Below, one piece after another: positions 5,045 to 62,931 of a DNA stretch of 64,000 nucleotides. Source of the stretch: Candidatus Magasanikiibacteriota bacterium (GTDB lineage Bacteria; Patescibacteriota; Patescibacteriia; Magasanikbacterales; GWA2-37-8). The position numbers were made by a program, and so were the translations under genes. The stretch's first letter is position 1. Each line of letters starts with the position of its first letter. The notes beneath the pieces were generated by a model. That model had not been told where the DNA came from and searched no databases. It saw only the letters and a list, made by a program, of their open reading frames with translations. The stretch is taken from NCBI GenBank assembly GCA_009694865.1, contig SICD01000001.1, forward strand, positions 403 to 64,402, written 5' to 3'.

Positions 5045-5608
5045 CTACTTGCCGCGCGGGAGGACGTAGCGGGCGCCGAAGTCGTTGCCGACCCAGCCGA
5101 AGTCGAGCACCCACGCGTCGCCGCGCCAGAACAGGCCGGCGACGTAGAGGTTGCAGTCGGAGCGGCGCAGGCGAGTTGCGGTGAAGACGATGGCCTTCTT
5201 GCCCCGGAACTCCTCCGGGATGAGGTGCGGGTTGTCCCGCAGGTACACCGCGTCCAGGAGACCCTTGTTGGCCTCGAGGATCATCGCGCGACCGCACATC
5301 ACCTCGCCGACCACCGAGCCGCCGTCGCCCTCCTCGAAGAACGAGGGGTATTCGATCCCATTGGCCTTGAAGAGGGTGGGGATGACATCGGTCTCGACCG
5401 TAAAGCCGTGCTTAGCGGCTTCGGCGCTCGAGGGGAACTGCAGGTCGCCGCCGACGGCCTCGAACCGGCCTTCCGTGAGCGCCTGAAGCGCCACGTCCAG
5501 CTGGTCTGTGTCGAAGGGGTAGCCTTCCCGCTGCCGGAGCTGGCGGACGATCTCCAGCAACTTCCCGTCCAACTTGTAGTACTGATCGCCAGTGACGATA
5601 GTCGCCAT
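5045..5608 (-). CDS. Hypothetical protein (187 aa) carried on a conspicuously high-G+C island; probably horizontally acquired
   Basis: G+C is about 65% by eye against mid-40s flanks, with codons ending in G or C. A canonical SD (aggag) lies 6 nt upstream of the ATG at 5608 (plus strand ctcct at 5614-5618). It has its own terminator at 4921-4957. The plus- and minus-strand ORFs 5042..5626, 5151..5486, 5299..5724 and 5412..5645 are GC-rich shadows. Confidence 0.6.
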   Translation of the reverse strand: MATIVTGDQYYKLDGKLLEIVRQLRQREGYPFDTDQLDVALQALTEGRFEAVGGDLQFPSSAEAAKHGFTVETDVIPTLFKANGIEYPSFFEEGDGGSVVGEVMCGRAMILEANKGLLDAVYLRDNPHLIPEEFRGKKAIVFTATRLRRSDCNLYVAGLFWRGDAWVLDFGWVGNDFGARYVLPRGK

Positions 5609-5882
5609 GACAATCTCCTTTCGTAAGGCTCATACCCGCCAGCACACATGTGCCGACAGATGTTTGCCTGATTTGACTGGGTAGTTCCCAGCCTTCTTTC
5701 TAATCCCGAGTTAGTCGTGACCAAAAAGAAAGCTGGTAATTATAAAGTCCGCCTCTTCGGCGGATCAGCCGGTGAGGCTGAAACAACGGATAACTATAAC
5801 ACATTTTAGCACGATTGTCAATAGTGACATACAAAAAATGGCTCTCATAAGCCATTAGATTCTTAGGTATCCTAAAAATACT

Positions 5883-6044
5883 CTACGATTCTACGCCATC
5901 TTTAATTTTTTTAACAATCGTAACAAGACTCTCAAGTATTACTTTTATCTCTCGCAGATCATCCTTAGTCGCCATAGTTTCCTTAACTATACGCATATCT
6001 TCTTTCAACCCAATTATTTCTTGTATAACTTTATCTTCATCCAT
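5883..6044 (-). CDS. Small hypothetical coiled-coil protein (53 aa)
   Basis: Internal ATG of ORF 5883..6074: MDEDKVIQEIIGLKEDMRIVKETMATKDDLREIKVILESLV... The composition matches the backbone. No homology was recognised. Confidence 0.25.
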   Translation of the reverse strand: MDEDKVIQEIIGLKEDMRIVKETMATKDDLREIKVILESLVTIVKKIKDGVES

Positions 6045-6150
6045 AGTATTGTAGTAACAAAAATTAAACCTCACCTAACGTCTTAGAACTGGTAGCGAGT
6101 TATTTCTATAAGTGGCTTAACGTAGCCAAAAATTGACAAAAATTTTTGGC

Positions 6151-6279
6151 TGTCATTCCGACGACACAGGAGGTCTCGCGATCCCTCATAGGGGAATCTC
6201 TGGCTCACTCAATTGATGACATTTGTTGTTGGGTAAGCCAGAGATCCCTCGTCGGCGCGAGCCTCGCTCGGGATGACAA
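6151..6279. repeat. MITE-like palindromic element family A, intergenic
   Basis: tgtcattccgacgacacaggaggtctcgcgatccc...gggatctc...cgctcgggatgacaa. The central part is a nested palindrome. Confidence 0.7.
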
Positions 6280-6395
6280 TTGGTGAAACTCGCTATGAAT
6301 TCTTATACCTTTTAGTATATATAACAAAAAAAGCCTTGTCAAACGCAAACACCGTTGTTGCTCGTTCCCCGTTTATATAATATAATTCCCCCACT

Positions 6396-7568: not shown

Positions 7569-7584
7569 AGGATCTAATTTAAAT

Positions 7585-7719
7585 TGTCATTCCGAATCCC
7601 CCGTCGCAGGGGGTGAGGAATCTCTGTCTCAATCAACGTAACGACAGACAGAGATCCCCCTACGAGGGATCGCGAGACCTCGTCGCACCGCACGATACGG
7701 GGCTCGCTCGGGATGACAG
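7585..7719. repeat. MITE-like palindromic element family A, filling exactly the gap between convergent genes (stop at 7568 and stop at 7720)
   Basis: tgtcattccgaatcccccgtcgcagggggtgagg...cgctcgggatgacag. Confidence 0.7.
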
Positions 7720-8970: not shown

Positions 8971-8973
8971 AGT

Positions 8974-10089: not shown

Positions 10090-10102
10090 ATAAGGATGAA
10101 AA

Positions 10103-11800
10103 TTACATCTTTTCTACCACTTTAATTCCCAAAAGATAGAGGCCGCGCTTGGCGACTGTGAGAACGCTTTTAATTAATTGAGCTCGAAAAATTCTAGTAG
10201 CACCTTCAGATTTTACTACCGAGCAGGCTGCATAAAAATCGCTAAAGCGTTGCGCGAGTACCAGCAAATAATGAGCAATAAGCGAAGGATCCGGCAATGC
10301 CGCCGCCCGTGCTGTGACCGCTCCAAATTCGCCTAGCAATAATAATAGCCGTTTTTCTTCTAAAACAATCGTCTCCGGAATCTCGCCGAGACTAAGAGTG
10401 CCAATTTTTTCTAAAATACTGCGAATACGCGCGCACATATACAAAAGATACGGCCCAGAATCACCCGTTAAACTCACCGAAGTTTTAAAATCAAACGCAA
10501 TATCATTCTCAATTCCCGTCTTAAGAAACGCATACTTAACCGCCGCCAAAGCAACATTTTTAATAACATCGTCCTTGTTTGGAAGATCGCTCTCGCTCAT
10601 AATTTGCGTCACTTCTTTTTCTGCTTCGTCCAAAAGCCACTCCCCTAAAACCACTTTGCCTGTGCGCGAACTCATTTTCCCCTCTTTAAGTTTGACCCAA
10701 CCATATTCTAAATGCCGCTCTCGCTCCTTGCTTTTTGGCAAAGTAAATTCTAAAGCTTTAAACAACACTTTAAAATATTCCGATTGTTCCTTGGCCACCA
10801 CATGATAAATTGCTACTGGGTCAAACTCAGCAAATTGTTTTTCCGCCAAAGCCAAATCCTTGGCTTCATACGTAGGGAAGCCTTTGCTGTTTAAAAACAC
10901 CCGGTCGTGCAAACCAAATTCAGAGCCTTTAAAAATCACCGCGCCCTCACTTTGCACAAAAATTTCTTTTACCACGCACTCTTTCACAATTTCCCGTCCA
11001 CGCGCGAACACTTCCGATTCAAAATACAACCGGTCAAACCGACTCCCCACGCGCGCATAAATAGCGTCAAAATATTCCAAACTCCAGCCCCTCGTCTCCG
11101 TGTACATTTCTCGAATGGATTCGTCGTGAGTGTAAATCGATTCATTAATCTCCCCAATTTCGGCTTTAACCTTTTCATCTTGTTCAAACGTCTGACTCCC
11201 CAAAGCATAAGCCTTGCCCAAAAACGCCACGCGCTCGGTAATCGTTTTATTTTTTACCGTCTCATATTCAGCTCGCAGCTGCCGCACTCCCCACAAACAT
11301 TTGGCAATGTGCATACCCACATCACCCTGATAATTCGCTCGCACCACTTCGTATCCGGCATTCTCCAAAATTCGCACTAAACTCTCGCCCGTCACGATAT
11401 TTCGTAAATGACCAATATGAAAAGCTTTGTGTGTGTTCGGATGCGCGAACTCCACTATCACTTTTTTACCTTTCCCAATTTCACCCATGCCATAATCATC
11501 ACCCCGGCGCGTAATTTCTTCAATCACCATTCTAGCCACCTCCGCTCCATTAAGAAAAAAATTCACATACGATCCCACCGCGCGCACGTCACTCACCATT
11601 CTTAATTCTTCATTCTTAATTCTTAATTCCAATTCTTTGGCCACTTCCACCGGACTCTTTTTTTGAGTCTTCGCGATCCCAAAACACGCGAACGCGAAAT
11701 CACCCATCTCGGCTTTAGGTGGAGCGGTAAATTCAATTGCGCCTTCCACTCCCACGGAGCGGAGCGCGGCTTCTAATTCACTGGTTATCTTAAAAGACAT
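10103..11800 (-). CDS. argS: Arginyl-tRNA synthetase
   Basis: Class I HIGH region EFAHPNTHKAFHIGHLRN, and the ArgS-type C-terminus ...AKRGLYLLGIKVVEKM. The likely start is MSFKITSELEAAL (ATG at 11798-11800). Confidence 0.8.
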   Translation of the reverse strand: MSFKITSELEAALRSVGVEGAIEFTAPPKAEMGDFAFACFGIAKTQKKSPVEVAKELELRIKNEELRMVSDVRAVGSYVNFFLNGAEVARMVIEEITRRGDDYGMGEIGKGKKVIVEFAHPNTHKAFHIGHLRNIVTGESLVRILENAGYEVVRANYQGDVGMHIAKCLWGVRQLRAEYETVKNKTITERVAFLGKAYALGSQTFEQDEKVKAEIGEINESIYTHDESIREMYTETRGWSLEYFDAIYARVGSRFDRLYFESEVFARGREIVKECVVKEIFVQSEGAVIFKGSEFGLHDRVFLNSKGFPTYEAKDLALAEKQFAEFDPVAIYHVVAKEQSEYFKVLFKALEFTLPKSKERERHLEYGWVKLKEGKMSSRTGKVVLGEWLLDEAEKEVTQIMSESDLPNKDDVIKNVALAAVKYAFLKTGIENDIAFDFKTSVSLTGDSGPYLLYMCARIRSILEKIGTLSLGEIPETIVLEEKRLLLLLGEFGAVTARAAALPDPSLIAHYLLVLAQRFSDFYAACSVVKSEGATRIFRAQLIKSVLTVAKRGLYLLGIKVVEKM

Positions 11801-11922
11801 GTAGGCTATTCTATTACAAACAAAGGCAAAAAGCAAATAAAAAAATAATCCCACTTCACAGGATTATCGTTCCCCTCCTCAAAGAACATTATACCACAAT
11901 TTATCGGATAATGACACTACCC

Positions 11923-11955
11923 TGCTCGCAGAGTCGAATGACCCTGTGGATAAGT
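11923..11955 (-). repeat. Copy 2 of the 33-bp DnaA-box-like/hairpin repeat, in inverse orientation
   Basis: The reverse complement reads acttatccacagggtcattcgactctgcgagca (1 mismatch to the copy at 2885-2917). Confidence 0.5.
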
Positions 11956-11960
11956 TCTTG

Positions 11961-12260
11961 CTATTCCGCTTCATGAATAACGCGAGCGCGACGCAAAAGC
12001 GTAGGGTTAACTAAACGATGGGCACGGGTAATGTCGTCAACCAAAAGCGCGCTACCCGGATTTTCTCCAACTCGCCCCATAAAACGCCATGGCTTAACGT
12101 CATCCCGCGATTGAACCAAATCGCCCGGCTGCGCCTTGCAACCAGAAAACGATTCGGGGTAATAGATGATATTTTGCTCCGGCGATGTGAATGTTTGCGG
12201 ACGAATCTCTTTTGGGCTCACGCTATCGCGACTTCCTTCGCCACCAAGTCTTTTACTCAT
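11961..12260 (-). CDS. Hypothetical protein (99 aa) coupled 4 nt downstream of tyrS
   Basis: Only ORF evidence and tight coupling. No homology was recognised. Confidence 0.3.
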   Translation of the reverse strand: MSKRLGGEGSRDSVSPKEIRPQTFTSPEQNIIYYPESFSGCKAQPGDLVQSRDDVKPWRFMGRVGENPGSALLVDDITRAHRLVNPTLLRRARVIHEAE

Positions 12261-13458: not shown

Positions 13459-15680
13459 TTTTGAATCATAAGTAGTTTTTCTTTTTCCTTTCCATACATC
13501 TCACTCCAAATCGCCTCCGTCACAAACGGCATAAACGGGTGCAGGAGCTTGAGCGACATAATAAGATTATGGAGAAGAATTTTTTTAGTATTATCCGCAA
13601 ACGCTTCGTCAACTAATTGCGTTTTGCTCGCCTCCAAATACACATCGGCCAATTTGTGCCACACAAAATCATAAATAGTTTGCGCCGCTTCGTGCAAACG
13701 AAACGCTTCAAGACCGCTCGTCACTCCCTCAATCGTTTGTTGTAATTCGAGAATAATGGTTTTATCGGCCTCAGTCTTCGTTTCAATCGATTTGGAGCTT
13801 GAAATTTGGAGCTTGGAAACTTCCAGATTTGTCAAAACAAATCTGGCGATGTTCCACAACTTATTCGCGAAATGCTTCATACCCTTAACCTTATCTTCCG
13901 CCAACGGAATATCGTTACCCGCCGCAGTGGAAAACACCAGCGCGAAACGAAGCGCGTCCGTACCATAGGTATCAATAACTCCTAACGGATCAATCACATT
14001 CCCCTTACTTTTGCTCATTTTCTGACGATCTTTATCGCGCACCAGGCCATGCAAAAATATTTTTTCAAATGGCGGTTTGCTAGTTCGATAATATGACATC
14101 ATTACCATTCTAGCCACCCAGAAAAAAATAATATCCCAACCAGTTTCCATTACTTGCGTAGGAAAATAGGTTTCAAAATCTTTGGTACCATGCTTGGCAT
14201 CATTCGCCATAAGCGTGGCGTACGGCCACTGACCGGACGAAAACCAAGTGTCGAAAGTATCAGGATCATGAATAATTTCTGTAGAATCACAATGCGGGCA
14301 GACTGTCAGAGTATTCTCAACATCAACAATCACACCATTCTTCATTCGACATTCGTCATTCTGCATTCGCTGACAGTACCACACTGGCAGCGGTATCCCC
14401 CACCAAATTTGGCGGCTAATTGGCCAATCGCGAATATTTTCCATCCAGTGACGATATGTTTTTTCGAATTTCTCCGTAACAATCTCTACTTCTTTTTTGT
14501 CGAGCGCCTGGACGGCCATATCGCGAAGCGAAGGGCGGCCATCGGGCAATTGCTTGGTCATGGCAATGTACCACTGCGGCACAATTTGCGGCTCAATGAG
14601 ATTACCACATTTGTAGCAGAGCTGGACATTGTGCTTATATTTATCATCAATATGGTCTACCAACCCTTTGCCTTGTAGTTTCTCCACAATTTTAACGCGC
14701 GCGTCCAAAATTTTCATACCCGAAAACTCTCCGGTCATCGGGAGCATTTTACCTCGTTTGTCTATTACCTGTTCAACATCCAATTTGTGCCGCTCCGCAA
14801 TCTCAAAATCCACCGCCGAGTGTGCTGGAGTGATGGTCATAACGCCGGTACCAAATTCCATATCCGCGGCTTCATCTTTTATAACGGTGGCGGTAATGGA
14901 TCCGTTAATCCATTCTAAATTTAATTTATCACCATGTTTATACCGGGTGTAGCGCTTATCATCCGGATGCATAACAACATATTTATCGCCAAATTTTGTT
15001 TCGGGACGCGATGTGCCAATAACAAACGGACCGTATTTAAAATAATAAAATTGTTCTTGGCGCTCTTCATATTTCGTTTCTAAATCTGCCAAACCGGTTT
15101 GATGCTTGGGACACCAATTGCAAATACGACCCGCACGATAAATTAGACCATCGGCGTACATTTGTTTAAACGTGGCGTAAACGACTTTAACAATTTCCGG
15201 ATCAAGACTAAAAATATTTCGGCTCCAATCGCATGACGCCCCCAAACGGCGAATACCATTCTCGCTCAAATGCTTGTTATGTTGCACAAAATCCCAACAC
15301 GCTTTATAGAATTCCTCACGCGTCATTTTAAAACGGCTGGTGCCTTCTTTCTCTAATTTTTTTTCAAATACCACCTGGGTTTCAAAACCAGCGTGGTCGG
15401 TGCCCGGCAACCACAAAGCTCTGCGCCCGCGCATGCGGTGATACCGAGTTAAAATATCTTGAATTGTTAAACCCAAAGCATGCCCCACGTGCAAGGGAGC
15501 GTTGGCGTTGGGGAGCGGGAGCATTATCGTAAAGGGCCTTCGCTCCGCTTCGCTTAGATTATCCACCCAAGGCAGATGCGCCTCGGGCGCAAAAAAACCG
15601 CTGTCTTCCCAGCGCTTATAAATATCGGCCTCGTATTGGCCAGGGTCGTAAGCTTTAGCTAATTCTTCCATAGTCTCCAT
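13446..15680 (-). CDS. valS: Valyl-tRNA synthetase, short form (744 aa; the C-terminal coiled-coil appears absent). Its 3' end overlaps tyrS by 13 nt.
   Basis: PNANAPLHVGHALG...LWLPGTDHAGFETQ, WPISRQIWWGIPLPVWYC, KMSKSKGNVIDP. Confidence 0.85.
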   Translation of the reverse strand: METMEELAKAYDPGQYEADIYKRWEDSGFFAPEAHLPWVDNLSEAERRPFTIMLPLPNANAPLHVGHALGLTIQDILTRYHRMRGRRALWLPGTDHAGFETQVVFEKKLEKEGTSRFKMTREEFYKACWDFVQHNKHLSENGIRRLGASCDWSRNIFSLDPEIVKVVYATFKQMYADGLIYRAGRICNWCPKHQTGLADLETKYEERQEQFYYFKYGPFVIGTSRPETKFGDKYVVMHPDDKRYTRYKHGDKLNLEWINGSITATVIKDEAADMEFGTGVMTITPAHSAVDFEIAERHKLDVEQVIDKRGKMLPMTGEFSGMKILDARVKIVEKLQGKGLVDHIDDKYKHNVQLCYKCGNLIEPQIVPQWYIAMTKQLPDGRPSLRDMAVQALDKKEVEIVTEKFEKTYRHWMENIRDWPISRQIWWGIPLPVWYCQRMQNDECRMKNGVIVDVENTLTVCPHCDSTEIIHDPDTFDTWFSSGQWPYATLMANDAKHGTKDFETYFPTQVMETGWDIIFFWVARMVMMSYYRTSKPPFEKIFLHGLVRDKDRQKMSKSKGNVIDPLGVIDTYGTDALRFALVFSTAAGNDIPLAEDKVKGMKHFANKLWNIARFVLTNLEVSKLQISSSKSIETKTEADKTIILELQQTIEGVTSGLEAFRLHEAAQTIYDFVWHKLADVYLEASKTQLVDEAFADNTKKILLHNLIMSLKLLHPFMPFVTEAIWSEMYGKEKEKLLMIQKWPI

Positions 15681-16984: not shown

Positions 16985-16991
16985 TCGCTCA

Positions 16992-17080
16992 CTGTCATTC
17001 TGAGCGGAGCGAAGAATCCCTTAAAGCCAACATCTAAGTTAATGCAAACATCAAGGGATCCTTCATTTCACTCAGGACAA
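16992..17080. repeat. Degenerate copy of MITE family A, immediately upstream of high-GC cassette A
   Basis: ctgtcattctgagcggagcgaagaatccc...gggatccttcatttcactcaggacaa. Confidence 0.5.
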
Positions 17081-17151
17081 CAAAGAGAACAACAACCCAT
17101 GAGGTGGCCGCCCCAAAAGGACAGGCCACCAGCCTCGAAAGGAGGCAGACC

Positions 17152-17463
17152 ATGAAGATGTTCCTGGTCGTATACATCTCCAAGACCGTGGGAATCCCCT
17201 TCGCTAATGTCGTCACAGGGAAAAAGATCAAGACCCAGAAGCAAGCGCGAGAGACCATGGTGGCGAAAGGCCACACCGTTGTATCCGTGAGTGAGGTCCC
17301 AGTCAAGAACACAAGTGATGAGGATACGAAGAAGATGGCGGTGGCACTGATCAATCTCGTCGAGCAGTGCCCTCCGCTCAACAACGTCCTCAACAGTCTG
17401 GCGTATTGGGCGTTGTGCGCGGGACGCGACTACGAACGCAAGCTCGGCCTGAAGAAGAAGTAA
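17152..17463 (+). CDS. Small hypothetical protein (103 aa) on a high-G+C single-gene cassette
   Basis: aggagg at 17140-17145, 6 nt before the ATG at 17152 (MKMFLVVYISKTVGIPF...). G+C is visibly higher than the flanks. It is followed by three hairpins including a canonical terminator. The ORF-track 17104 start and the antisense ORFs 17034..17393 and 17068..17526 are rejected. Confidence 0.55.
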   Translation: MKMFLVVYISKTVGIPFANVVTGKKIKTQKQARETMVAKGHTVVSVSEVPVKNTSDEDTKKMAVALINLVEQCPPLNNVLNSLAYWALCAGRDYERKLGLKKK

Positions 17464-17598
17464 ATCAGCGCGCCCTTCACCGCCTGCCCCCTCCACACGG
17501 GTCCAACCCCCGTGGAGCGAAAACACAGATCGCTCGTGCTCTCGCTTTATTGGTACAAACAGTTGTATTAATAAAGCGCGAGCGATCTGAAATTTAAA

Positions 17599-17632
17599 AC
17601 ATCCTGACGCTATCCGTCGGGATGTTTTTTTG
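17599..17632 (+). terminator. Rho-independent terminator of cassette A
   Basis: acatcctgacg-ctatc-cgtcgggatgt followed by ttttttt. Two further GC-rich hairpins lie upstream (17491-17517 and 17528-17587). Confidence 0.55.
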
Positions 17633-42412: not shown

Positions 42413-43714
42413 TTAGAGTACTTTTGCAAAAACACACTTTAAATACTCCCCTTCCGTAAACGCCGCCAGTTCCGGGTGGTCAATGCCGTGGGTGAATGTT
42501 TCCAGTACTTGCACAGTCCTTCCGGCCCGAGCTGCCGCCTCCGACAACATAAACCTAAAATCCTCCAGCCGCACGTGAGCCGAGCATGAGCAGGTCAAAA
42601 GAATGCCCCCTGGCGGCAAAATGCGTAAAGCCATCTCATTAATTTTCCTGTATCCTTGTAACCCTTCTTTTATTTTGTGCCGATCTTTAACAAACGCTGG
42701 TGGGTCTAAAATAATCACATCAAATTCGCCCGACTGACAATCCGTTAGATATTCCTTCACATCCGCCAAAATAAATTCGCATTTTGATTCGTCCAATTTA
42801 TTTAATTTCACATTCTCTTCGGCCAGCTCAAGTGCTGGTTGCGAAGCATCCACGCTCACCACACTCTTAGCGCCCGCGCCGAGGGCATAAACTGAAAAAC
42901 CGCCGGTATAAGAAAAACAATTCAACACTTTTTTATTCATTACATATTTTTGTAGAGCCAAACGCTTATCCCGCTGATCCAAGAAAAACCCCGTTTTCTG
43001 TCCACCAATAATATCGACCCAAAACAAATAGCCGTTCTCTTTTATCTTTACTCTCTCCGGCACTTCGCCAAAAAGCAAACCGACTTTTTCGTTGTCATTC
43101 CGAGCGAAGTCGAGGAATCCCTTGGTTTGGCCAGGAGGGATTTCTCCACTGCGCTTCGCTTCGGTCGAAATGACAGAATGTGCGCTATGCCCCGTACGAC
43201 GTCCAACATCCGACCGCTCATAAATCCCTTTTGGTTTTAAAATCTTAACGAGCGCTTTCACAATCAAATCTTTCCAATGTTCGATCCCCGGATTATGAAA
43301 CTGAACGGAAAGATACTCGGCGTATTTATCAACAATTAGCCCCGGCAACAAATCATTTTCCGCGTGGATTAATCGATACGCGTTCGTCTGTGTCCCCCTG
43401 CCCGAGGGGGACTGTAGGGGGGAGGGAGTGTTGGCGACAAAATCTTTGCGCAACTCATAAGCCCGTTTGAGGCGTTTCTCAAAAAATTCCGCGTCAACCA
43501 TCTCCTCTTTATCCCAACTCCAAATCCGCACCGCGATTTGCGAATACGAATTAAAAAAACCCTGCGCCAAAAAATTGCCTTGCTCATCGTGGAGTACTAC
43601 CGGCTCGCCGCTCGTGAGTCCTTCCGGAATATTTTTCAACGCGCCCGAAAACACCCACGGATGCCTTCCGCGAATTGGTCCAACACGTTCTTTTTTAACT
43701 ATTAGTGTAACCAT
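42413..43714 (-). CDS. rlmI: PUA-domain class I SAM-dependent rRNA (m5C) methyltransferase, RlmI-like, carrying in-frame repeat insertions
   Basis: N-terminal PUA-like VKKERVGPIRGRHPWVFSG and a SAM-methyltransferase core (...DPPAF...). MITE 43092-43176 and a GC hairpin at 43391-43410 are read through in-frame. Confidence 0.7.
   Translation of the reverse strand: MVTLIVKKERVGPIRGRHPWVFSGALKNIPEGLTSGEPVVLHDEQGNFLAQGFFNSYSQIAVRIWSWDKEEMVDAEFFEKRLKRAYELRKDFVANTPSPLQSPSGRGTQTNAYRLIHAENDLLPGLIVDKYAEYLSVQFHNPGIEHWKDLIVKALVKILKPKGIYERSDVGRRTGHSAHSVISTEAKRSGEIPPGQTKGFLDFARNDNEKVGLLFGEVPERVKIKENGYLFWVDIIGGQKTGFFLDQRDKRLALQKYVMNKKVLNCFSYTGGFSVYALGAGAKSVVSVDASQPALELAEENVKLNKLDESKCEFILADVKEYLTDCQSGEFDVIILDPPAFVKDRHKIKEGLQGYRKINEMALRILPPGGILLTCSCSAHVRLEDFRFMLSEAAARAGRTVQVLETFTHGIDHPELAAFTEGEYLKCVFAKVL
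43092..43176. repeat. MITE family A copy inserted in-frame within rlmI
   Basis: ttgtcattccgagcgaagtcgaggaatcccttggtttggccaggagggatttctccactgcgcttcgcttcggtcgaaatgacag. Confidence 0.65.
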
Positions 43715-46222: not shown

Positions 46223-46336
46223 TGTCATCCCGAGCGAGGCTCGCGCCGACGAGGTCTCGCGATCCCTCGTAGGGGAATCTCTGTCCGTCGGTTGTTGATT
46301 GAGCCAGAGATTCCTCCTTCGTCGTCGGAATGACAA
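46223..46336. repeat. MITE family A copy abutting the prfA start codon
   Basis: cttgtcatcccgagcgaggctcgcgccgacgaggtctcgcgatccc...cttcgtcgtcggaatgacaa. The prfA ATG is 4 nt after the element. Confidence 0.7.
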
Positions 46337-47422: not shown

Positions 47423-47455
47423 AAGACTGGAAGATTACAAGATTGCCATTTGACA

Positions 47456-47470
47456 CAATCTTCTAATCTT
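47456..47470 (+). repeat. Left 15-bp direct repeat (caatcttctaatctt) flanking high-GC cassette B
   Basis: It is identical to 47937-47951. The extended similarity is gattgcca...caatcttctaatctt versus gattgtcgcaatcttctaatctt. Confidence 0.7.
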
Positions 47471-47525
47471 TTGATCTTTCTCTGATCAAACCGCGCCAGC
47501 GGATTCTGGAATTTTGGAGGGAAAC

Positions 47526-47831
47526 ATGCCGGGACCGGGAGTAAGTCGTTGGCACCGAGTGCTGCTGGCACTCGATCTGTGCGTCGAGCAAGTGCGAATG
47601 GCGCTGTCATTGCCGGCGCCGGGAAACATCGAGTTGATTCGTCTCCAGCATCGCTGGGTGCGGAGAAGGCTCGGACTGGAAAGGCGGCATGAGGCTGTTA
47701 TCTTTTGGTTCGATGGCGGAAAGACCGGCATCTGCCAAATGTGTAACGAAGACGTGGCTTTCGAGCAGGGGGGAAGCCACCCGACCAATTGCCCGGGCCC
47801 GCCCAACACCACCGACCGTTCTGGCCGGTGA
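47526..47831 (+). CDS. Small hypothetical Cys-containing protein (101 aa) on high-G+C cassette B
   Basis: ggagg at 47516-47520 precedes the ATG at 47526 (MPGPGVSRWHRV...CQMCNEDV...NCPGPP). It is G+C-rich and has its own terminator at 47865-47897. The antisense ORFs 47419..47610 and 47486..47812 are rejected. Confidence 0.5.
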   Translation: MPGPGVSRWHRVLLALDLCVEQVRMALSLPAPGNIELIRLQHRWVRRRLGLERRHEAVIFWFDGGKTGICQMCNEDVAFEQGGSHPTNCPGPPNTTDRSGR

Positions 47832-47864
47832 AGAGCGATGCCGGCGCTAACCCCGGCTCATCCA

Positions 47865-47897
47865 AAAACAGCTTTTTTAAAAGGCTGTTTTTGTTTG
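47865..47897 (+). terminator. Rho-independent terminator of cassette B
   Basis: aacagc-ttttttaaaag-gctgtt followed by tttgttt. Confidence 0.5.
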
Positions 47898-47936
47898 CGT
47901 TGACTGAAGTGTGGTGGTACAGTACGATGATTGTCG

Positions 47937-47951
47937 CAATCTTCTAATCTT
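47937..47951 (+). repeat. Right 15-bp direct repeat (caatcttctaatctt) flanking cassette B, 8 nt upstream of the prmC ATG
   Basis: Identical to 47456-47470. Confidence 0.7.
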
Positions 47952-53240: not shown

Positions 53241-53286
53241 AAGAGTATAAATACTCTTGACGTCACTTACTAGTATAGACTATAGT
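53241..53286 (+). promoter_or_regulatory. Perfect 18-bp palindrome (aagagtataaatactctt) overlapping a putative promoter (TTGACG-N18-TATAGT) of cassette C. Candidate operator.
   Basis: Palindrome 53241-53258, -35 ttgacg at 53257-53262, -10 tatagt at 53281-53286. Confidence 0.4.
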
Positions 53287-53316
53287 GAACCTGTCGTCAA
53301 ACCAAGGAGGCTCCCG

Positions 53317-53835
53317 ATGAGTCGTGAAATCCCGCACCAGATGATGCTCTTGGCCTTTCTCTCGCTTTTCCGAGCGCTCCGCGTTCAGCGCCGCTTCTCG
53401 GTAGAACAGCGGGAGACGCTGGTCACGGCGCTGCCCCAACCGTACTCGCTCGGATCGGCTCCGATGGATCTGCAAATCGCCTGGAACATGCTGGGGCGGA
53501 CCCTCGACCTCCCTCTGGGAGAAACCGCCCTCAACAACGAACGCGGCCTCGCGAAGAAGGCTCCGCTCCGACCCACGAATTGGGATCTGATCGCCGCACT
53601 CGCGTCGCTGTTCCGTGTCCTCAAGGCAACACGAGCGTTCCGGCGAGAGAAACTTCATGAGCTCCGATGCCAGCTGCTGGAACCGCTCGGACGCGAGAGC
53701 CGGTACATGCCACCCGCCACAGCCTGGGAGACGATCAGGCTCGGACTCTTGCATGGCTCCTTTGAGATGCTCGGACTCTCGCTCAAGCACTTCAAGAAGA
53801 GGCATGCGGCTCCACAAAAGACGAAAACGGGGTGA
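53317..53835 (+). CDS. Hypothetical helical protein (172 aa) on high-G+C cassette C
   Basis: aaggagg at 53304-53310 precedes the ATG at 53317 (MSREIPHQMMLLAFLSLFRAL...). Visibly G+C-rich. A hairpin and a T-rich region follow the stop. The antisense ORFs 53263..53853, 53385..53624 and 53655..53843 are rejected. Confidence 0.5.
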   Translation: MSREIPHQMMLLAFLSLFRALRVQRRFSVEQRETLVTALPQPYSLGSAPMDLQIAWNMLGRTLDLPLGETALNNERGLAKKAPLRPTNWDLIAALASLFRVLKATRAFRREKLHELRCQLLEPLGRESRYMPPATAWETIRLGLLHGSFEMLGLSLKHFKKRHAAPQKTKTG

Positions 53836-53944
53836 ACCCCCAAGGAGAGACAACCAAAGGACGGCGAGCGACTCCGCTCGCCGTCCCAGCTTCTAAAAAA
53901 TAAACCAGTCGCTCACAAGTGACTGATTTTTATTTCTCCCGCCA

Positions 53945-56177: not shown

Positions 56178-56207
56178 GATCCCGACTCCGTCGGGGTCGG
56201 TTTTTTT
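56178..56207 (+). terminator. Rho-independent terminator after the lipoprotein gene
   Basis: cccgactccgtcggggtcgg followed by ttttttt. Confidence 0.55.
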
Positions 56208-56291
56208 ATGTGCTTTTTTTATGTGCTTTACAAACCCCTTCCAATTTGCTAATTTATAAGTACTGTCCAAAACGACAGTGAGGAAAAAACC

Positions 56292-56531
56292 ATGATATCT
56301 TGCCGATTGTCGGGTACGGTTGCTCGGCTGCTCAAGCCGGGCGAAAACTTTCACCTGGGGCACGACTGCTACACGCATGCCACCGCACCGCCCGCCTGGA
56401 GTGCGGGCGAGGTGTTCGGCGAATGCAAGAATCTGTGGGCCACCCCGCTCGACGGCGGAGAGATGAAACAGATCTCCGCGGAAACGTCCGTCCACATCAT
56501 CCCGCCCCCCAAGGTCAAAATCGGCCAGTAG
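56292..56531 (+). CDS. Small hypothetical protein (79 aa) on a high-G+C island (cassette D)
   Basis: gtgaggaaaaaacc precedes the ATG at 56292. G+C-rich (MISCRLSGTVARLLKPGENFHLGHDCYTHATAPPAWSAGEVFGECKNLW...). A hairpin plus T-run lies at about 56549-56624. Confidence 0.45.
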   Translation: MISCRLSGTVARLLKPGENFHLGHDCYTHATAPPAWSAGEVFGECKNLWATPLDGGEMKQISAETSVHIIPPPKVKIGQ

Positions 56532-56666
56532 CCGCCGGGGGAGCAATCAGCATCCGCTCCCTGTTACCCCGATAATTAATTGTCGGAATAACAAGGAGGT
56601 ATCCGCGGATGCTTTTTGTTTTATTTAACTTAAAACGCCTTGCCTCACCCTTCGAGAACGACGGGG

Positions 56667-56695
56667 TTGACAAATAGCGACTCTCTCATTAGAAT
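56667..56695 (+). promoter_or_regulatory. Sigma70-like promoter TTGACA-N17-TAGAAT upstream of cassette E
   Basis: ttgaca at 56667-56672, a 17-nt spacer, tagaat at 56690-56695. Confidence 0.45.
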
Positions 56696-56758
56696 TACCC
56701 GCATCAGTAACCTGTTCCGCCGACGGTCGGCGGCCAACGTTCTGAAAGGAGCAATGCG

Positions 56759-56932
56759 ATGTCGAGATTAATCGTGTTCGGTTCCGGAGTGGCCCTGATC
56801 ATCAGCGCCGCGATCGTGGTCATGATCAAGGAGGTCCTCAAAAAGAAGACGGGAGAGGGACTGTACTGGCTCGCTGCCGTGCTGATCCTCGCCGGAGCGG
56901 CCCTCGCCTTTCCCGCCTTATACGACCCATGA
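56759..56932 (+). CDS. Small two-TM membrane protein (57 aa) on a high-G+C island (cassette E). It is not in the ORF track because it is under 60 aa.
   Basis: aaggag precedes the ATG at 56759. Hand translation gives MSRLIVFGSGVALIISAAIVVMIKEVLKKKTGEGLYWLAAVLILAGAALAFPALYDP, ending at the stop at 56930-56932. G+C-rich. The antisense ORF 56704..56940 is rejected. Confidence 0.4.
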   Translation: MSRLIVFGSGVALIISAAIVVMIKEVLKKKTGEGLYWLAAVLILAGAALAFPALYDP

Positions 56933-57158
56933 CCGCCCACCAGCCCCGCCGTGCGCCCTGCGCGCCGGCGGGCTTCCTATTTTAAATGATCTTAAATATA
57001 TGCACTGCTGTACCATTACACGAGTACACATATCTCTCAACTATTTTTATTAGCACCACCCCGGGGTCTGGGGGTCCAGCTGTTTGAGCGTCCTGCCATA
57101 CACAATAACTTTAGCCACATGACGACTAAGCGAGTTTTGGACCCCCAGCAGTTTTTTG

Positions 57159-57260: not shown

Positions 57261-60092
57261 CTATTTAAGCACACGTTTAAGGTATTGCCCGGTGAAAGAA
57301 GCGGATTTCTTAGCAACTTCTTCCGGTGTCCCGCTGGCAACAACCTCACCCCCCTTATCCCCCCCCTCCGGCCCCAAATCAATAATCCAATCCGCGCATT
57401 TAATCACATCCAAATTATGTTCAATCACCATCACGGTATTCCCTTGTCCAACAAGTCGTTGGAGCACATCAAGCAACTTCCGCACATCATCATAATGCAA
57501 ACCCGTCGTCGGCTCATCCAGCAAATACAACGTCTTAGTCGTGCCGTGTTTTGCCAACTCCCGGCTAAGTTTAATCCGCTGTGCTTCCCCGCCCGACAGC
57601 GTCGTTGCCGATTGTCCCAAGGTTAAATAATCCAACCCCACCTCATTTAACATTTTCAATTTATCTTCCACCAGCGGAATATCTTTAAAAAACTCTTCCG
57701 CGTCTTCAATTGTCATGTTCAAAACATCCGAAATATTCTTGTCTTTATAATGCACCTGTAAAATTTCGTTGGTAAACCGTTTGCCGCGGCACACATCACA
57801 AATAATTTGCACGCTCGGCAAGAAATGCATCTCAATTTCTAAATTTCCTCGGCCTTCACAGTTTTCACAACGCCCACCTGGGACGTTAAAGCTAAATTTA
57901 CCAGATTTGTACCCCCGAATTTTTGCCTCTGGAGTTGACGCGAATAATTCCCGAATAAAATCGAAGGCTTTCGTATACGTCGCCGGGTTACTACGCGGCG
58001 TGCGCCCAATCGCGCTCTGGTCAATCGTAATCATCCGATCAATATATTCGGTCCCGGTGATTTCCAAATGCTTGCCGACCGATTTATTAAGACGAAATAA
58101 ACGATTGTTAATCGAGCGATGCAAAATATCGTGCATTAAAGTAGATTTTCCCGATCCGGAAACACCGGTAAGGCATACAAACCGTCGCAGAGGAATCTCC
58201 ACGGTAATATTTTTCAAATTATGTTCCGTCGCTTTCTTAATTTTAATTTTCGGCGTCGCCCCATCTACTTTCCGTCGCTTTTCGGGTACAGGAACTTTTA
58301 ATTCGCCGCGGAGGTATTGGCCGGTGAGAGATTTTGCTGGGTCGCCTTGGGTAGCGGCAAATACGGACTGCCCCCTCGAGGGGGCCTCACGGGGGTGTAA
58401 GACCGCTGCGTGGCCGTTTCGACTTCGCTCAAGGCCACCCTGAGCAAGGTCGAATTGGTGGCGGTCGTCGATTGAGCGACGCAAAGGACTCACACCCCCC
58501 CGAACGCCCTGCGGGGCGCCCCCCTCGAGGGGGGATTTGGCGAGCATCACCTCTAACGGCCCCGAAAACACCACTTCCCCACCATGCTTCCCCGCCCCCG
58601 GTCCAATGTCCACAATCCAATCACTCACCATAATCGTATCCTCATCATGCTCCACAACAATAATGGTATTCCCCACATCACACAAATTCCGGAGCGTCCT
58701 CACTAGTCGGTCGTTATCCCGTTGATGCAACCCAATCGTTGGTTCATCCAGTACATACAAAGCACCAACCAGTCGCGTGCCCACTTGTGATGCTAACCGA
58801 ATACGCTGTGCCTCACCTCCCGACAGAGTGCCCGCTTTCCGATTAAGTGTTAGATAATGCAAACCAACATCAAACATGAACTGCAAACGATTGCAGACTT
58901 CCTTCAATACCGCCCCGGCAATTTCGCGTTGCGTTTCCGGCAATTCCATATCCACGCTCGCAAAAAATTCCCGCGCTTCGGCAATCGATAAATTTGTTAC
59001 TTCCCAAATATTTTTATCCACCACTTTCACGCTCAAGGCCGTGGCGTTTAACCGCTTGCCTTTACACACCGGACACTCTTCTTCACTGAATAATTCTTTA
59101 GTGCCCAAACCAGTACACGCTTGGCAATAACCATAAGGACTGTTAAAACTAAACAACCGCGGTTCAATTTCCGGAAAACTAAAACCATCTTTAGGGCAAG
59201 AATATTCGGTGCTATAAATATGTTCCTCGCCGCTGGGGTACAAGACCGTACAAAGGCCGTTGGAAAGTTCCACCGCATTGGCTACTGCTTCGCCCAAACG
59301 CTGTTCAACGTCTTTCTTTGTCATCCCGACAGAGGCTCGCGCCGACGAGGTCGAAGATCCTCCGAGGAGGAGATCTCTGTCTATCGTTTGGTGAGCCAGA
59401 GATTTCTCCTTCGCCGTCGAAATGACAGACAACGCTGCCATTGGAATTTTATCAACAATTACTTCAATAGTATGTTTATCATTTTTTTCTAAAATAACCC
59501 GTTCACGCAAACTTTTTATATTGCCATCCACTCGCACCTCTAAATATCCGGAATTATAAACATCATACAACATCTGATAATATTCGCCTTTGCGTCCGCG
59601 TACTACCGGAGAAAATAAAATTAATTCAGGAGCCTTTTTTGTTTTCCCACCATCTTGTTTTAGTGCTTTTTTAATTTTTTCTATCATCTGATCGGTCGTC
59701 ATTTTCTGAATTTTCGTGCCACAAAGCGGACAATGCGGCTCGCCTACTCGGGCAAATAAAACACGGAGATAATCATAAATCTCCGTGATCGTCGCCACGG
59801 TGGAACGCGGATTCGCACTGTGCGCTTTTTGATCGATCGAAATTGCCGGCGACAACCCTTCAATTTCATCCACATCCGGCTTTTGCATGCCACCCAAAAA
59901 CTGCCGCGCGTAAGCCGACAAACTTTCAATATACCGCCGCTGACCTTCCGCAAAAATCGTATCAAAAGCCAAGCTCGATTTTCCCGAACCTGATAATCCT
60001 GTAAACACAATCATTTTATTCCGCGGCAGTTCCAAATTAATATTCTTGAGATTGTGTTCTCGCGCCCCTTTGATTATAATTTTGTCTTGCAT
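57261..60092 (-). CDS. uvrA: Excinuclease ABC subunit A, with in-frame repeat insertions
   Basis: The start [20 protein letters not shown] is the canonical UvrA N-terminus (ATG at 60090-60092). It has two ABC ATPase modules and zinc-finger Cys clusters. MITE 59318-59428 and the two ccccctcgaggggg hairpin regions at 58371-58384 and 58519-58534 are translated in-frame. Confidence 0.9.
59318..59428. repeat. MITE family A copy in-frame within uvrA
   Basis: ttgtcatcccgacagaggctcgcgccgacgaggtcgaagatcctccgaggaggagatctctgtctatcgtttggtgagccagagatttctccttcgccgtcgaaatgacag. Confidence 0.65.
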
Positions 60093-60100
60093 GTGATTCG

Positions 60101-60182
60101 ACAGAATCATGCCGAGCAATGTCCTTTGAAGCTCGGCGGATTTAACAGAATCATGCCGAGCAATGTCCTTTGAAGCTCGACG
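60101..60182. repeat. Tandem duplication (2 copies of 38 bp, period 44) of a hairpin-containing 38-mer in the uvrA 5' leader
   Basis: acagaatcatgccgagcaatgtcctttgaagctcg[g/a]cg at 60101-60138 and 60145-60182. Each copy contains the stem gccgagc/gctcggc. Confidence 0.65.
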
Positions 60183-60323
60183 AATTAGTGGACAGTGTAA
60201 TAGCGTTTAAAAAAATTGCGGCTTACAACGGCGGCACTATAGCATTGTCGCCATTACCACTTTTCTTGATAATTGACAAACCAGTCAGCCATAGATACAC
60301 TTATGGCCAAGGAGGCAACAACC

Positions 60324-60515
60324 ATGTCGGGGAACGAGCGTGAAGCCCGCCGCGGCGGGCAAATCTGTTTTTCTCTGGGTGCTTTGCTCGGCGGACTCTG
60401 TGGCTGGGCCTTCAGCGGCCAGCCGCTCGAGGGGCTAGCGATCGGCCTCAGTATCGGTCTGTTCTTCGGAGGGTTTATCTACCTCCGTGACCGCCGGCCA
60501 CCGCCGGCCATGTGA
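60324..60515 (+). CDS. Small glycine-zipper membrane protein (63 aa), GlsB/YeaQ/YmgE-like (transglycosylase-associated protein family), on high-G+C cassette F
   Basis: ggagg at 60311-60315 precedes the ATG at 60324 (MSGNEREARRGGQICFSLGALLGGLCGWAFSGQPLEGLAIGLSIGLFFGGFIYLR...). G+C-rich. A terminator hairpin at 60583-60600 plus a T-run overlaps the 3' end of uvrB. An alternative ATG lies at 60303. Confidence 0.45.
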   Translation: MSGNEREARRGGQICFSLGALLGGLCGWAFSGQPLEGLAIGLSIGLFFGGFIYLRDRRPPPAM

Positions 60516-60570
60516 GGAGCCGTGTCCCACCTCGTGCCGGGCTCCGCCATCGCGCGGACCCGGCACACTT

Positions 60571-62931
60571 CTACCCATTGCCCCCGACCACTCGGTCGGG
60601 TTTTTTATTAGAGAGCGCTTTGATTTTCGGCGTTCCCGAAACTTTCACCCTCGTCCGCAATTCCCGCAACTCATCCCTGAGTATCGCCGCCAACTCAAAC
60701 TCTAACCCCTTCGCCGCCTCCCGCATCTGTTTCTCTTTATCTTTAATAATTTCCTCCATCGGCCGCGCATCGCCGAGCAAATCCAAATCAAGAGTTGAAA
60801 TCGCTCCGGTGCGGCCTTTTAGCCCTCTCCCGGCTCTCGCGCCTTTTGAGCCTTTAGCATTTCCCCCATCTCGACTAACACCAAACTCTTCGAGAATATT
60901 CCTAATTGTTTTTTCAATCGTCTTCGGCGTAATGCCATGTTCTTTATTATACGCCAACTGAATTGTGCGACGACGGTCTGTTTCTTTAATCGCTCGTTCC
61001 ATGGAACCCGTCATATTATCCGCATACAACACTACTTGCCCATTCACATTCCGCGCCGCCCGGCCAATCGTCTGAATGAGTGACGTTTCACTGCGCAAAA
61101 ATCCTTCTTTATCCGCGTCTAAAATTGCCACCAGTGATACCTCGGGCATGTCAAGCCCTTCGCGCAACAAGTTAACCCCCACCAACACATCATGTTTACC
61201 CAGCCGCAAATCCATAATAATCTCAATCCGTTCCAACGTGAGCACATCACTATGAATATACGCCACTTTAATTTTTTTCTCTTTTAAATACTCCGTTAAA
61301 TCCTCCGCCATTTTTTTCGTGAGGGTGGTCACGAGCACTCGCTCACCCTGCTTAATCCGTTCGTCGATGCGGATAAGGAGGTCCTCGACTTGCGACTTTC
61401 CTAAATTGTCATTCTGAGCCCCGTCAGGGGTGGCCGAAGAATCTTCCTTTTTTCTATTCGGAAGATCCTTCGCTCCGCTCAGGATGACATTTTTATTTTT
61501 ACCGGTGATGGGCCTCACCACCACCTCTGGATCAATCAACCCCGTCGGCCGCACCACCTGCTCCACAACTTGCTCACTTTCCTTAATTTCATAGGGTGTT
61601 GGCGTAGCAGACACGTACACAAGCTGTCCCACACGCTCTTCAAATTCCTTATACTGAAGCGGCCGATTATCACGCGCACTGGGAAGACGAAAACCATGCT
61701 CAACCAGAGTATCTTTGCGTGCCCGGTCGCCATTATACATCCCTCTGATTTGAGGAACGGTAACGTGGGACTCGTCGATGATGGTGAGGAACCCCCGAGA
61801 CATCCCCTCACCCGACCTCTCCCGCGGGGAGAGGAGGCGCTTCCCCTCGCCCCGCGGGAGAGGGACGGAGGGTGAGGGTTCGGTCGCACTATACCTAAAA
61901 TAATCCAACAACGTAAACGGCGGCTCCCCTTCCGCGCGCCCTTCAAAATGCCGCGAATAATTTTCAATGCCGTTGCAATACCCAATATTTTTTATCATCT
62001 CCAAATCATACGCCACTCGCCGCTTTAACCGTTCATATTCCAAAACTTTCCCCTGCCGTTCAAACACCGCGAGTTGTTCGTCGAGCTCGCTTTTGATTCT
62101 CGCAAACGCCTGTTGACGAGAGGCCTCACTCACCACATAATGCTTCGCCGGAAAAAACCAAACATCAGACTCGCGCCTGATGTTTGTCCTGAGGCCGCGC
62201 ACGGCCGAAGGACCCCTCTCATCAACATCCGAACTAGCAAGAACCGCCCGAGTAACACGATCTAATTTTTCAATTCGGTCGATATGGCTCGAGATCTCGA
62301 ATCGATAAATCGCATCCTCATTCACCGGCATTATTTCAAACACCTGCCCGTGCAACCGAAAACTGCCCCGCTTTAGTTCGCTGTTCGTCCGCTCAAATTG
62401 CATCGCGACCAATTGTTCCAACATCGCCCGCCGATCAAGTTCATCCCCCCGTCGCAAATGCAAAACAATTTTTTCATATTCTTTAGGAGACCCCAAACCG
62501 TAAATCGCCGAAACCGATGCCACAATAATAACATCCCGCCGCGTCAACAACGCCTGCGTACACGCATGCCGCAACCGATCAATCTCCTCGTTCACCTGCG
62601 CCTCTTTTTCAATATAAGTATCACTCCCCGGCATATACGCCTCGGGCTGGTAGTAATCATAATAACTAACAAAATATTCTACCGCGTTATCAGGAAAAAA
62701 TTCCCGAAATTCATTACACAACTGCGCCGCCAAAGTTTTGTTATGCGCAATAACAAGCGTTGGCATTTGCACCTGTTGAATCACATTCGCCATCGTAAAG
62801 GTCTTTCCCGAACCGGTTACGCCAAGCAATGTCTGCTTCCGCATTCCCTGCTCCAAACCCAAAACAAGCCTTTCAATGGCTTTGGGCTGGTCTCCATCTG
62901 GCTGGTATTTTGATTTTATTTTGAATTGCAT
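60571..62931 (-). CDS. uvrB: Excinuclease ABC subunit B, with in-frame repeat insertions
   Basis: The start [22 protein letters not shown] is the UvrB N-terminus (ATG at 62929-62931). Helicase motifs GVTGSGKT and the C-terminal UVR domain are present. MITE 61406-61490 and the family-B element 61803-61877 are read through in-frame (...[26 protein letters not shown]...). Confidence 0.9.
61406..61490. repeat. MITE subfamily A2 copy in-frame within uvrB
   Basis: ttgtcattctgagccccgtcaggggtggccgaagaatcttccttttttctattcggaagatccttcgctccgctcaggatgacat. Confidence 0.65.
61803..61877. repeat. Palindromic element family B copy in-frame within uvrB
   Basis: tcccctcacccgacctctcccgcggggagaggaggcgcttcccctcgccccgcgggagagggacggagggtgaggg. 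Nearly identical to 6747-6824. Confidence 0.65.

Follow-up and report, generated by a model that had tools for sequence, protein, structure and literature searches.

GC-rich, Shine-Dalgarno-led small genes in a Shine-Dalgarno-poor Candidatus Magasanikbacteria genome, one of them homologous to the variable proteins of diversity-generating retroelements

Phage morons are autonomous units of promoter, open reading frame (ORF) and terminator that have a deviant composition and lie between genes, and acquired genes are usually AT-richer than their host, not GC-richer. In genomes of the candidate phyla radiation (CPR), diversity-generating retroelements (DGRs) are abundant and their targets mostly unclassifiable, and the reverse transcriptase (RT) and Avd co-evolve with the target as a cassette (PMC5758913). 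Here we analyse a 64,000-nucleotide stretch of contig SICD01000001.1 (assembly GCA_009694865.1), called the window below, in which seven small GC-rich ORFs, labelled C1 to C7, are dispersed in a backbone that is poor in Shine-Dalgarno (SD) sequences. The source organism belongs to the CPR/Patescibacteria, Candidatus Magasanikbacteria, and is an ultra-small groundwater bacterium. Its UvrA (57261-60119, minus strand) has its best relatives, at no more than 79% identity, in metagenome-assembled genomes (MAGs) of Candidatus Magasanikbacteria and other Patescibacteria, in agreement with the guess of an episymbiont-type genome made in a preliminary description of this DNA.

That description read the seven ORFs as cassettes independently acquired from high-GC donors, an actinobacterial host or its phages being the example given. 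When a large protein database (5.8e9 proteins) was searched with C1, C3, C4 and C5, no relative was found in a high-GC context, and C3 and C4 were ORFans without any relative there; a high-GC donor is accordingly not where our data point. We put at about an even chance the reading that the seven units are accessory genes specific to, and long resident in, the lineage, which keep up a GC-rich, SD-dependent style of expression and are no fresh imports. In small lineage-specific genes of this SD-poor CPR lineage, high synonymous GC reproducibly goes together with a strong SD and with autonomous transcription. The units are as follows, with the GC content of each ORF and that of its third codon positions (GC3); aa stands for amino acids.

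5045..5608, minus strand: C1, coding sequence (CDS) of 187 aa, a homolog of DGR variable proteins; GC 0.66, GC3 0.91.
17152..17463, plus strand: C2, CDS of 103 aa with the SD AGGAGG and a terminator at 17596-17628 (NCBI hypothetical protein EXS55_00080); GC 0.54, GC3 0.76.
47450..47951, plus strand: C3, unit between prfA and prmC with its CDS at 47526-47831 (101 aa) and a terminator at 47863-47893; GC 0.61, GC3 0.68.
53257..53925, plus strand: C4, unit with a promoter at 53257-53286, CDS at 53317-53835 (172 aa) and a terminator at 53906-53925; GC 0.61, GC3 0.73.
56292..56531, plus strand: C5, CDS of 79 aa with an ortholog in a relative (L098); GC 0.62, GC3 0.79.
56667..56972, plus strand: C6, unit with a promoter at 56667-56695 (11/12), a 5' hairpin, CDS at 56759-56932 and a terminator-like hairpin at 56957-56972; GC 0.59, GC3 0.78.
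60273..60600, plus strand: C7, unit with a promoter at 60273-60301, CDS at 60324-60515 and a terminator at 60583-60600; GC 0.65, GC3 0.72.

The window has a GC content of 0.474 and a backbone GC3 of ~0.48 (mean 0.485 over in-frame chunks of the same length taken from 44 backbone genes). Against this background the GC3 of the seven ORFs (0.68-0.91) gives z-scores of 2.7-6.9 in a composition outlier test, at most 0.4% of backbone chunks match the observed values, and the excess GC falls mostly on synonymous positions. The G/C-ending codons noted in the preliminary description are borne out by these figures; its by-eye estimate of 60-66% G+C holds for five of the ORFs and is too high for C2 and C6. 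In the proposed frame, GC3 exceeds the GC of first positions and this in turn that of second positions in 7/7 ORFs, a coding-type periodicity that is weakest in C3 (0.65/0.51/0.68) and C7 (0.66/0.56/0.72). All seven have a canonical SD at the correct spacing 5' of an ATG, as had been noted, and the anti-SD duplex reaches -7.2 to -14.7 kcal/mol in 7/7 units, compared with a backbone median of -2.05 kcal/mol. Only 13.6% of backbone starts are at -8 kcal/mol or better, against 5.7% of random ATGs (P = 0.04), and the probability of seven strong SDs out of seven at the backbone rate is ~1e-6. The backbone is SD-poor, as first described, and such SD-poor initiation is found in all sampled relatives across the phylum, unlinked to genome GC (Spearman -0.02).

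Near-consensus promoters (10-11/12), AT-rich, sigma-70-like and of host type, were found for C1, C4, C6 and C7; the promoter scan found none of their own for C2 and C3, and none was called for C5. C2 and C3 probably share the transcript of the gene upstream. The scan picked up terminator-like hairpins in C1, C2, C3, C4, C6 (with a weak T-run) and C7, and that of C5, a long three-tier hairpin followed by a U-run, was read by eye. C1, C4, C6 and C7 are autonomous monocistronic units, each with a sigma-70 promoter, its own terminator and, between them, a strong SD and a short leader that carries a hairpin. The earlier picture of single-gene cassettes, each with its own SD and terminator, is borne out, with the qualification that C2 and C3 have no promoter of their own. 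Its view of the products as unrelated and mostly uncharacterisable also stands: the seven are mutually unrelated in all-against-all BLASTP, and none has a significant match in Pfam, PHROGs or PADLOC. Small GC-rich, SD-led ORFs are found in many relatives as well, at ~0.60-0.65 GC with a host at 0.36 or at 0.52, nearly all of them without Pfam domains.

The evidence that GC-richness lasts comes from C5 and C7. The sole clear homolog of C5, a small Cys-containing protein, is P0012 (48% identity), encoded in another Magasanikbacteria MAG (L098; numbers of this kind label contigs or loci of relatives) divergently from uvrC. It has a GC of 0.64 and a GC3 of 0.77 between flanks of ~0.45, and an SD of -9.5 beside neighbours without SD. 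At residues conserved between the two proteins, the proportion of identical fourfold sites is 0.39 compared with 0.37 expected, and hence saturated, and fourfold-site GC is 0.83 in both genes, compared with ~0.6 in the adjacent uvrC. For C7, a full-length counterpart is present in L004 at the same site and in the same divergent orientation (pairwise E 8e-6; GC 0.66 vs 0.52; SD -14.4). In both counterparts the high GC and the SD have outlasted the saturation of synonymous sites, so that the GC-richness appears to be maintained in place. According to the preliminary description, relatives with identical genes at identical sites would speak against acquisition; this is what was found for C5 (L098) and plausibly for C7 (L004), with GC-richness and SD persisting.

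The non-coding sequence downstream of C5 is better conserved than the protein.

56538..56618, plus strand: C5 3' untranslated region (UTR), three-tier terminator hairpin; counterpart at 2190-2268 in L098.

Within it, one block matches the L098 copy at 100% identity and the inner stems show covariation, whereas the proteins are 48% and the uvrC genes 58-69% identical. The motif GGGGAGC just after the C5 stop codon is complementary to the 5' arm of the terminator; if the two paired, the choice between termination and read-through could be coupled to translation. Among the database matches was P0013 (619 aa), made of ~9 near-identical repeats of ~65 aa that match residues 41-74 of C5; P0013 probably represents a translated satellite repeat, not a genuine relative of C5.

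C1 is the unit whose product can be placed best. Its database record is hypothetical protein EXS55_00035 of a Candidatus Magasanikbacteria MAG, and its features are listed here, where VR denotes the variable region and TR the template region of a DGR.

5793..5821, minus strand: promoter, TTGACA-17-TATAGT with TG extension, 11/12 matches.
5600..5683, minus strand: 5' leader with a conserved hairpin, then SD and start codon; supported by covariance, absent from Rfam.
5444-5608, minus strand: N-terminal module of ~55 aa, from family conservation.
5048-5431, minus strand: C-type-lectin domain, from the predicted fold.
5048..5170, minus strand: stretch equivalent by homology to the VR of homologous DGR targets.
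4945..5044, minus strand: 3' UTR with a weak CYYGG array and an intrinsic terminator (4945-4968, 10-bp hairpin).

By sequence comparison C1 is a homolog of DGR variable proteins, and its C-terminal domain has a predicted C-type-lectin fold, one of the two folds (C-type-lectin or Ig) expected of the ligand-binding domain of a DGR variable protein; the C1 profile found no match below E 0.6 among PDB sequences, and C1 has no signal peptide. In L015, the VR of the C1 homolog (14039-14140) differs from a TR (14507-14608) by mismatches of which 17/17 fall at TR adenines, and downstream of the TR lie an Avd-like ORF and then an RT with SQ and YxDD motifs. The mismatches between VR and TR are likewise adenine-specific in L085 (19/20), L092 (12/12) and L096 (22/23), and an RT adjoins the C1 homolog in three of these four VR/TR loci (L015, L085 and L096). 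The 64-kb window itself holds no TR-like copy of 5048-5170, no A-biased repeat pair, and no ORF with both the [IVLM]GxxxSQ and the YxDD motif of RTs. On its 3' side C1 is followed by the GC-rich 3' UTR with the terminator hairpin; to define an initiation of mutagenic homing (IMH) site, a TR would be needed. We infer that C1 is a C-type-lectin binding protein of the type that DGRs diversify and, since TR and RT are missing from the window, it is predicted to be either an orphaned target or one served from a distance by a DGR in another part of the genome.

The DGRs of relatives also show where in such a system the GC-richness lies. GC3 of the target is 0.80-0.82 in L015 and L085, against 0.27 and 0.44, both host-like, in the adjacent RT. 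A close relative, L044, carries a complete DGR.

L044 1921-3700: DGR with target 1921-2499, VR 2365-2497, TR 2857-2989, Avd-like gene 2999-3424 (minus strand) and RT from 3299.

Here 16/17 VR/TR mismatches are at A, and the target, from a protein family unrelated to C1, has a GC of 0.65 and a GC3 of 0.88 where Avd and RT are at GC 0.41-0.42. Across those DGRs GC-richness is confined to the target gene, and RT and Avd are of host composition. Avoidance of adenine linked to DGR activity was considered as a cause of the GC-richness and rejected, because third positions are depleted in both A and T.

Relatives of C1 are few, with 6 among the 5.8e9 proteins, two matches in L015 and 14 metagenome loci. 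They share the N-terminal module of ~55 aa (MATIVTGDxY...ALQAIxEGRF), to which differing C-termini are joined. The placed members, 31-64% identical to one another, all have a GC of 0.55-0.66 between flanks of 0.35-0.53, and they occur in unrelated contexts, with a histidine kinase, Fic, an M48 peptidase or uvrA as neighbours. Their genes are preceded by a leader of ~85 nt with an imperfect 15-bp RNA hairpin, in which 98% of cells are paired (94.7 bits), 6 pairs are altered on both sides and the G·U pairs are invariant. None of 500 shuffles reached the observed score (0/500) and slid registers pair at no more than 46%. The hairpin likewise lies upstream of the C1-family genes in L082-L093, its covariance model is specific for C1-family genes, and it has no match in Rfam 15, where a permissive scan gave only chance-level ones. 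The palindromic operator that had been proposed for the C1 promoter is instead this conserved RNA hairpin in the 5' leader. Since the covariance model matches C1-family genes only and the seven products are unrelated, one vehicle for all seven units was rejected.

Two further elements accompany these genes. Upstream of the leader hairpin, at ~5690-5745 of the window (minus strand), is a 13-bp inverted repeat, CCCAGCUUUCUUU...AAAGAAGGCUGGG, with a variable loop and compensatory changes, which is also found upstream of the DGR targets in L015, L044, L084, L085, L089 and L093. The CUGGG of this repeat could alternatively pair with a downstream CCCAG, making a structural switch possible. Between stop codon and terminator of DGR targets lies a tandem CYYGG array with a spacing of ~8 nt, 28 motifs being observed versus 6.6 expected in 13 UTRs; arrays were found in L015 (14165-14240), L082, L089, L093 and L044 (2500-2575), with a weak copy in the window at 4985-5044 (minus strand). 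The array may serve to bind a protein or play some part in homing.

The positions of the units are variable between relatives and empty in some, as their description as intergenic insertions implied. The order g60571-uvrA-uvrC-g52845-...-prmC-prfA is conserved across the phylum, but the cassette-bearing gaps are not: between g60571 and uvrA the distance is anywhere from -86 to 7351 nt (under 100 nt in 8/54 relatives), and between uvrA and uvrC it is anywhere from -25 to 5646 nt (under 100 nt in 10/63 relatives). The empty sites predicted for acquired genes were found for two units, C3 (prfA-prmC gap of 4 nt in L044) and C4 (uvrC-g52845 gap of 75 nt in L098); C5 is not absent at its site in L098 and C7 probably not absent in L004. 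L027 and L032 each carry, directly after uvrA, a GC-rich homologous cassette of 100 aa (47% identical). Because the gaps vary, some are empty and C3 is flanked by a direct repeat, the cassettes are accessory insertions in the evolutionary sense. In the closest relative, L045, a GC 0.66 island in a 0.48 genome lies downstream of uvrA (11237-11986, minus strand) and encodes a 249-aa Haem_oxygenas_2 protein (iron-containing redox enzyme), with a GC3 of 0.98 for the part of the ORF scored alone. GC-rich genes in these genomes are hence not confined to tiny ORFs, and this one is possibly a genuine import.

C3 encodes a small Cys-containing protein and is bounded by 21-nt direct repeats at 47450-47470 and 47931-47951, alike at 19/21 positions and beyond chance; direct-repeat 11-mers at C1 and C4 are within chance expectation. 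An ENA contig that carries C3 is of the same organism. The two halves of C4 are homologous (E 3e-5), making it a duplicated helical protein (AlphaFold2 model, mean confidence score pLDDT 55). Since this internal duplication appears to be old, C4 is, on its sequence, a genuine old gene. C6 encodes a two-transmembrane peptide of 57 aa, and C7 a small membrane protein of 63 aa that had been labelled GlsB/YeaQ-like; Pfam gave for it only sub-threshold glycine-zipper matches (Gly-zipper_YMGG, E 0.046; Gly-zipper_OmpA, E 0.1) and no match to Transgly_assoc, and the label is best dropped. The products of the seven units probably act at the envelope, or in interactions between cells or with phages.

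Where, then, does the GC-richness come from? No homolog of the searched units was found in a high-GC donor clade, although high-GC taxa are the best-sampled part of the 5.8e9 proteins, and every placed relative in the C1 and C5 families comes from a low-GC CPR-type contig and is itself GC-rich. Both facts tell against independent recent transfers from high-GC cellular donors or their phages, with GC3 and SD not yet ameliorated. The contrast in composition and SD that invites this explanation is real, there are empty sites in relatives for C3, C4 and the uvrA flanks, and the Haem_oxygenas_2 gene of L045 could be a genuine import. However, GC3 persists through synonymous saturation at conserved sites without drift to host values, the unit promoters are of host type and GC-rich DGR targets sit beside an RT of host composition, and we regard such donors as very unlikely. 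Another possible source lies within the CPR: a steady influx from a GC-rich mobile pool (unsampled phages, plasmids or other vehicles), landing in hot spots and lost before amelioration, with the C1 and C5 families having diversified in the pool. The gaps do behave as hot spots, with very variable content of up to 7351 and 5646 nt, the C1-family genes are in unrelated contexts, C3 has its 21-nt direct repeats, island GC is ~0.60-0.65 irrespective of host GC, and the AT-rich TR copy beside a VR means that an AT-rich version of the same sequence is held in these genomes. It has also been reported that HGT (horizontal gene transfer) into Patescibacteria is mostly from other Patescibacteria (PMC12455944). 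Against this, no family member was found in any GC-rich or viral contig (scans of viral contigs with C1, C2, C4 and C5 and a phage tblastn search with C2 gave nothing), the RT and Avd of the DGRs have host composition next to targets with a GC3 of 0.8-0.9, the neighbourhood of C5 and C7 is kept in distant relatives, and the promoters of the units are AT-rich and host-like. High-GC CPR lineages are just as SD-poor and would be poor donors of SD-led genes; as donors they were rejected on this ground. An influx of this kind is possible and is the strongest competitor, and in our ranking maintenance in place comes first, followed by a GC-rich mobile pool inside the CPR and, in last place, by high-GC cellular donors.

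It may also be asked whether all units are genes. Some, mainly C3 and C7, could be non-coding, as GC-rich structured RNAs or as chance ORFs in stop-poor GC-rich DNA, and the weak periodicity of both, the ORFan status of C3, antisense ORFs that are likewise open in several islands, folding z-scores of -2.1 and -3.1, and the non-coding flanks of C1 and C5 that are better conserved than the proteins all fit this idea. It is hard to square with the canonical, correctly spaced SD and ATG in 7/7, with the full-length protein alignment between C7 and its positional counterpart, with the strong coding periodicity of C1, C2, C4, C5 and C6, and with protein-level homology or an internal repeat for C1, C4 and C5; Rfam gave no matches, and the folding z-scores are modest and include the terminators. 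We consider it improbable. Rfam (gathering score) and ARAGORN found no RNA gene in the whole window, and permissive Rfam searches gave only chance-level matches (C1 and C5/C6 regions); structured non-coding RNA or tRNA was therefore rejected as a source of the GC islands.

Several points weigh against the reading of the units as resident genes that keep their composition in place. Permutation of synonymous codons revealed no general selection for a specific fold (z +0.8 to -2.4). The argument from persistence presupposes vertical descent, to which repeated insertion of pool cassettes into the same hot spots is an alternative, and the genes around C5 are arranged differently in the window and in L098. 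For C3 and C4, the lack of relatives, the empty sites in relatives and the direct repeats of C3 are equally compatible with recent insertion. The coding status of C3 and C7 is based on weak periodicity and SD, the search of the large protein database covered C1, C3, C4 and C5, and about half of the 16S genes of Parcubacteria are reported to lack the anti-SD motif (Tsurumaki et al., PMC9297842).

For maintenance in place, a route through translation can be proposed. Messages of the units are more stable per nucleotide, at -0.30 to -0.47 compared with -0.20 to -0.29 kcal/mol/nt. Selection for a specific mRNA fold was rejected as the cause, because permutation z is near 0 for most units (C1 -2.4, C3 -2.1, others near 0). 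In the backbone, initiation would proceed mostly without SD, on leaders that are AU-rich, short or absent. In 7/43 backbone genes a -10 box (at least 5/6) ends 4-12 nt 5' of the start codon, compared with a background of 5.9%, which suggests leaderless or short-leader initiation in part of the SD-poor backbone.

6396, 38997-39362, 41968-42387, 42413-43714 and 55553: backbone examples of a -10 box near the start codon.

A thermodynamically stable, GC-rich mRNA might not be loadable by the SD-less route and would then need a strong SD, and because of this need GC-richness and SD would form one linked expression style. Selection, or another persistent bias, acting on the RNA or DNA of the units would keep them GC-rich over long periods. 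A link of GC-richness and SD to translation is plausible, and we know of no precedent for a link between SD-led exception genes and GC-richness. The class of units appears heterogeneous, with GC-richness a property of the gene and not a donor leftover. One could go further and propose, as a rather unlikely extension for Magasanikbacteria and perhaps for Parcubacteria at large, a separately controlled expression class of GC-rich, SD-led accessory genes. Their mRNAs would be of unusual stability, would withstand AU-directed decay and would be translated only when anti-SD is available, by a sub-population of ribosomes or, at the extreme, in the partner cell of the episymbiont; DGR-diversified binders would be one cargo of this class, with their own conserved 5' and 3' RNA elements.

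Among the backbone genes around the units are prfA, prmC, uvrC, uvrA, a PsbP-like gene and a histidine kinase. With its listed start (GTG at 5037), the histidine-kinase ORF runs across the 3' UTR and terminator of C1; a promoter at 4924-4896 is followed, 8 nt on, by an in-frame ATG at 4887 (4885-5037, minus strand), a layout that suggests a leaderless message, a shorter protein and a spurious 5' extension in the listed ORF. Intergenic repeats resembling miniature inverted-repeat transposable elements (MITE) or repetitive extragenic palindromes (REP), with inverted ends GTCATTC(C/T)GA...GGGATGACA, occur at 6150-6290, 16990-17090 and ~46320-46336. At 60095-60182 a 44-nt unit is present twice in tandem (93% identical) across the listed TTG start of uvrA, and a 13-nt tandem duplication lies at 56201-56226.

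Atypical composition is routinely taken as a mark of recent HGT, and the high synonymous GC seen here stays with genes through saturating divergence. If our reading is true, composition-based HGT calls in CPR genomes need caution, and an unrecognised constraint would act on the mRNA or DNA of a whole class of accessory genes, in organisms whose translation initiation is unusual. The signature of GC3 plus SD alone could then locate small lineage-specific genes in CPR, DGR targets among them. The analysis also brings to light two conserved non-coding elements, the leader hairpin of the C1 family and the 3' UTR of C5, neither of which is in Rfam.

Set beside described systems, the units share features with several of them. 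They differ from integron gene cassettes in being dispersed over 55 kb, four with their own promoters, a comparison of architecture only in which no attC or intI search was made. Like phage morons, they are single, mutually unrelated intergenic ORFs of deviant composition with their own promoter and terminator; unlike morons, they are flanked by prfA, prmC, uvrA, uvrC and a histidine kinase with no prophage, have no phage homologs (PHROGs; viral contig scans), and in at least two cases keep the same site across deep divergence. With acquired genomic islets they have in common an atypical GC3, variable presence in relatives and, for C3, flanking direct repeats, and they are set apart by the lack of donor-side homologs and mobility genes and by the absence of drift to host composition where orthologs can be compared. 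In Flavobacterium johnsoniae, an SD-blind lineage, rpsU is an exception that is led by an SD (PMC7797042, PMC13000453), and the window likewise has a small set of strong-SD genes in a lineage where most genes lack one; the likeness is one of SD pattern, as the SD-led genes of the window are accessory ORFans and include no ribosomal protein gene. The closest relation is that of C1 to the DGR variable proteins (Mtd, TvpA and CPR/DPANN targets). C1 departs from these in having no TR or RT within 64 kb, in the ~55-aa N-terminal module that its family fuses to differing C-termini without a signal peptide, in a structured 5' leader and CYYGG array that are absent from Rfam and from the DGR survey PMC5758913, and in the strong GC-richness of the C1-type target gene alone. 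It agrees with them in its predicted C-type-lectin fold and in homologs that have a 3' VR, mismatches at TR adenines, and an Avd-like gene and an RT as neighbours.

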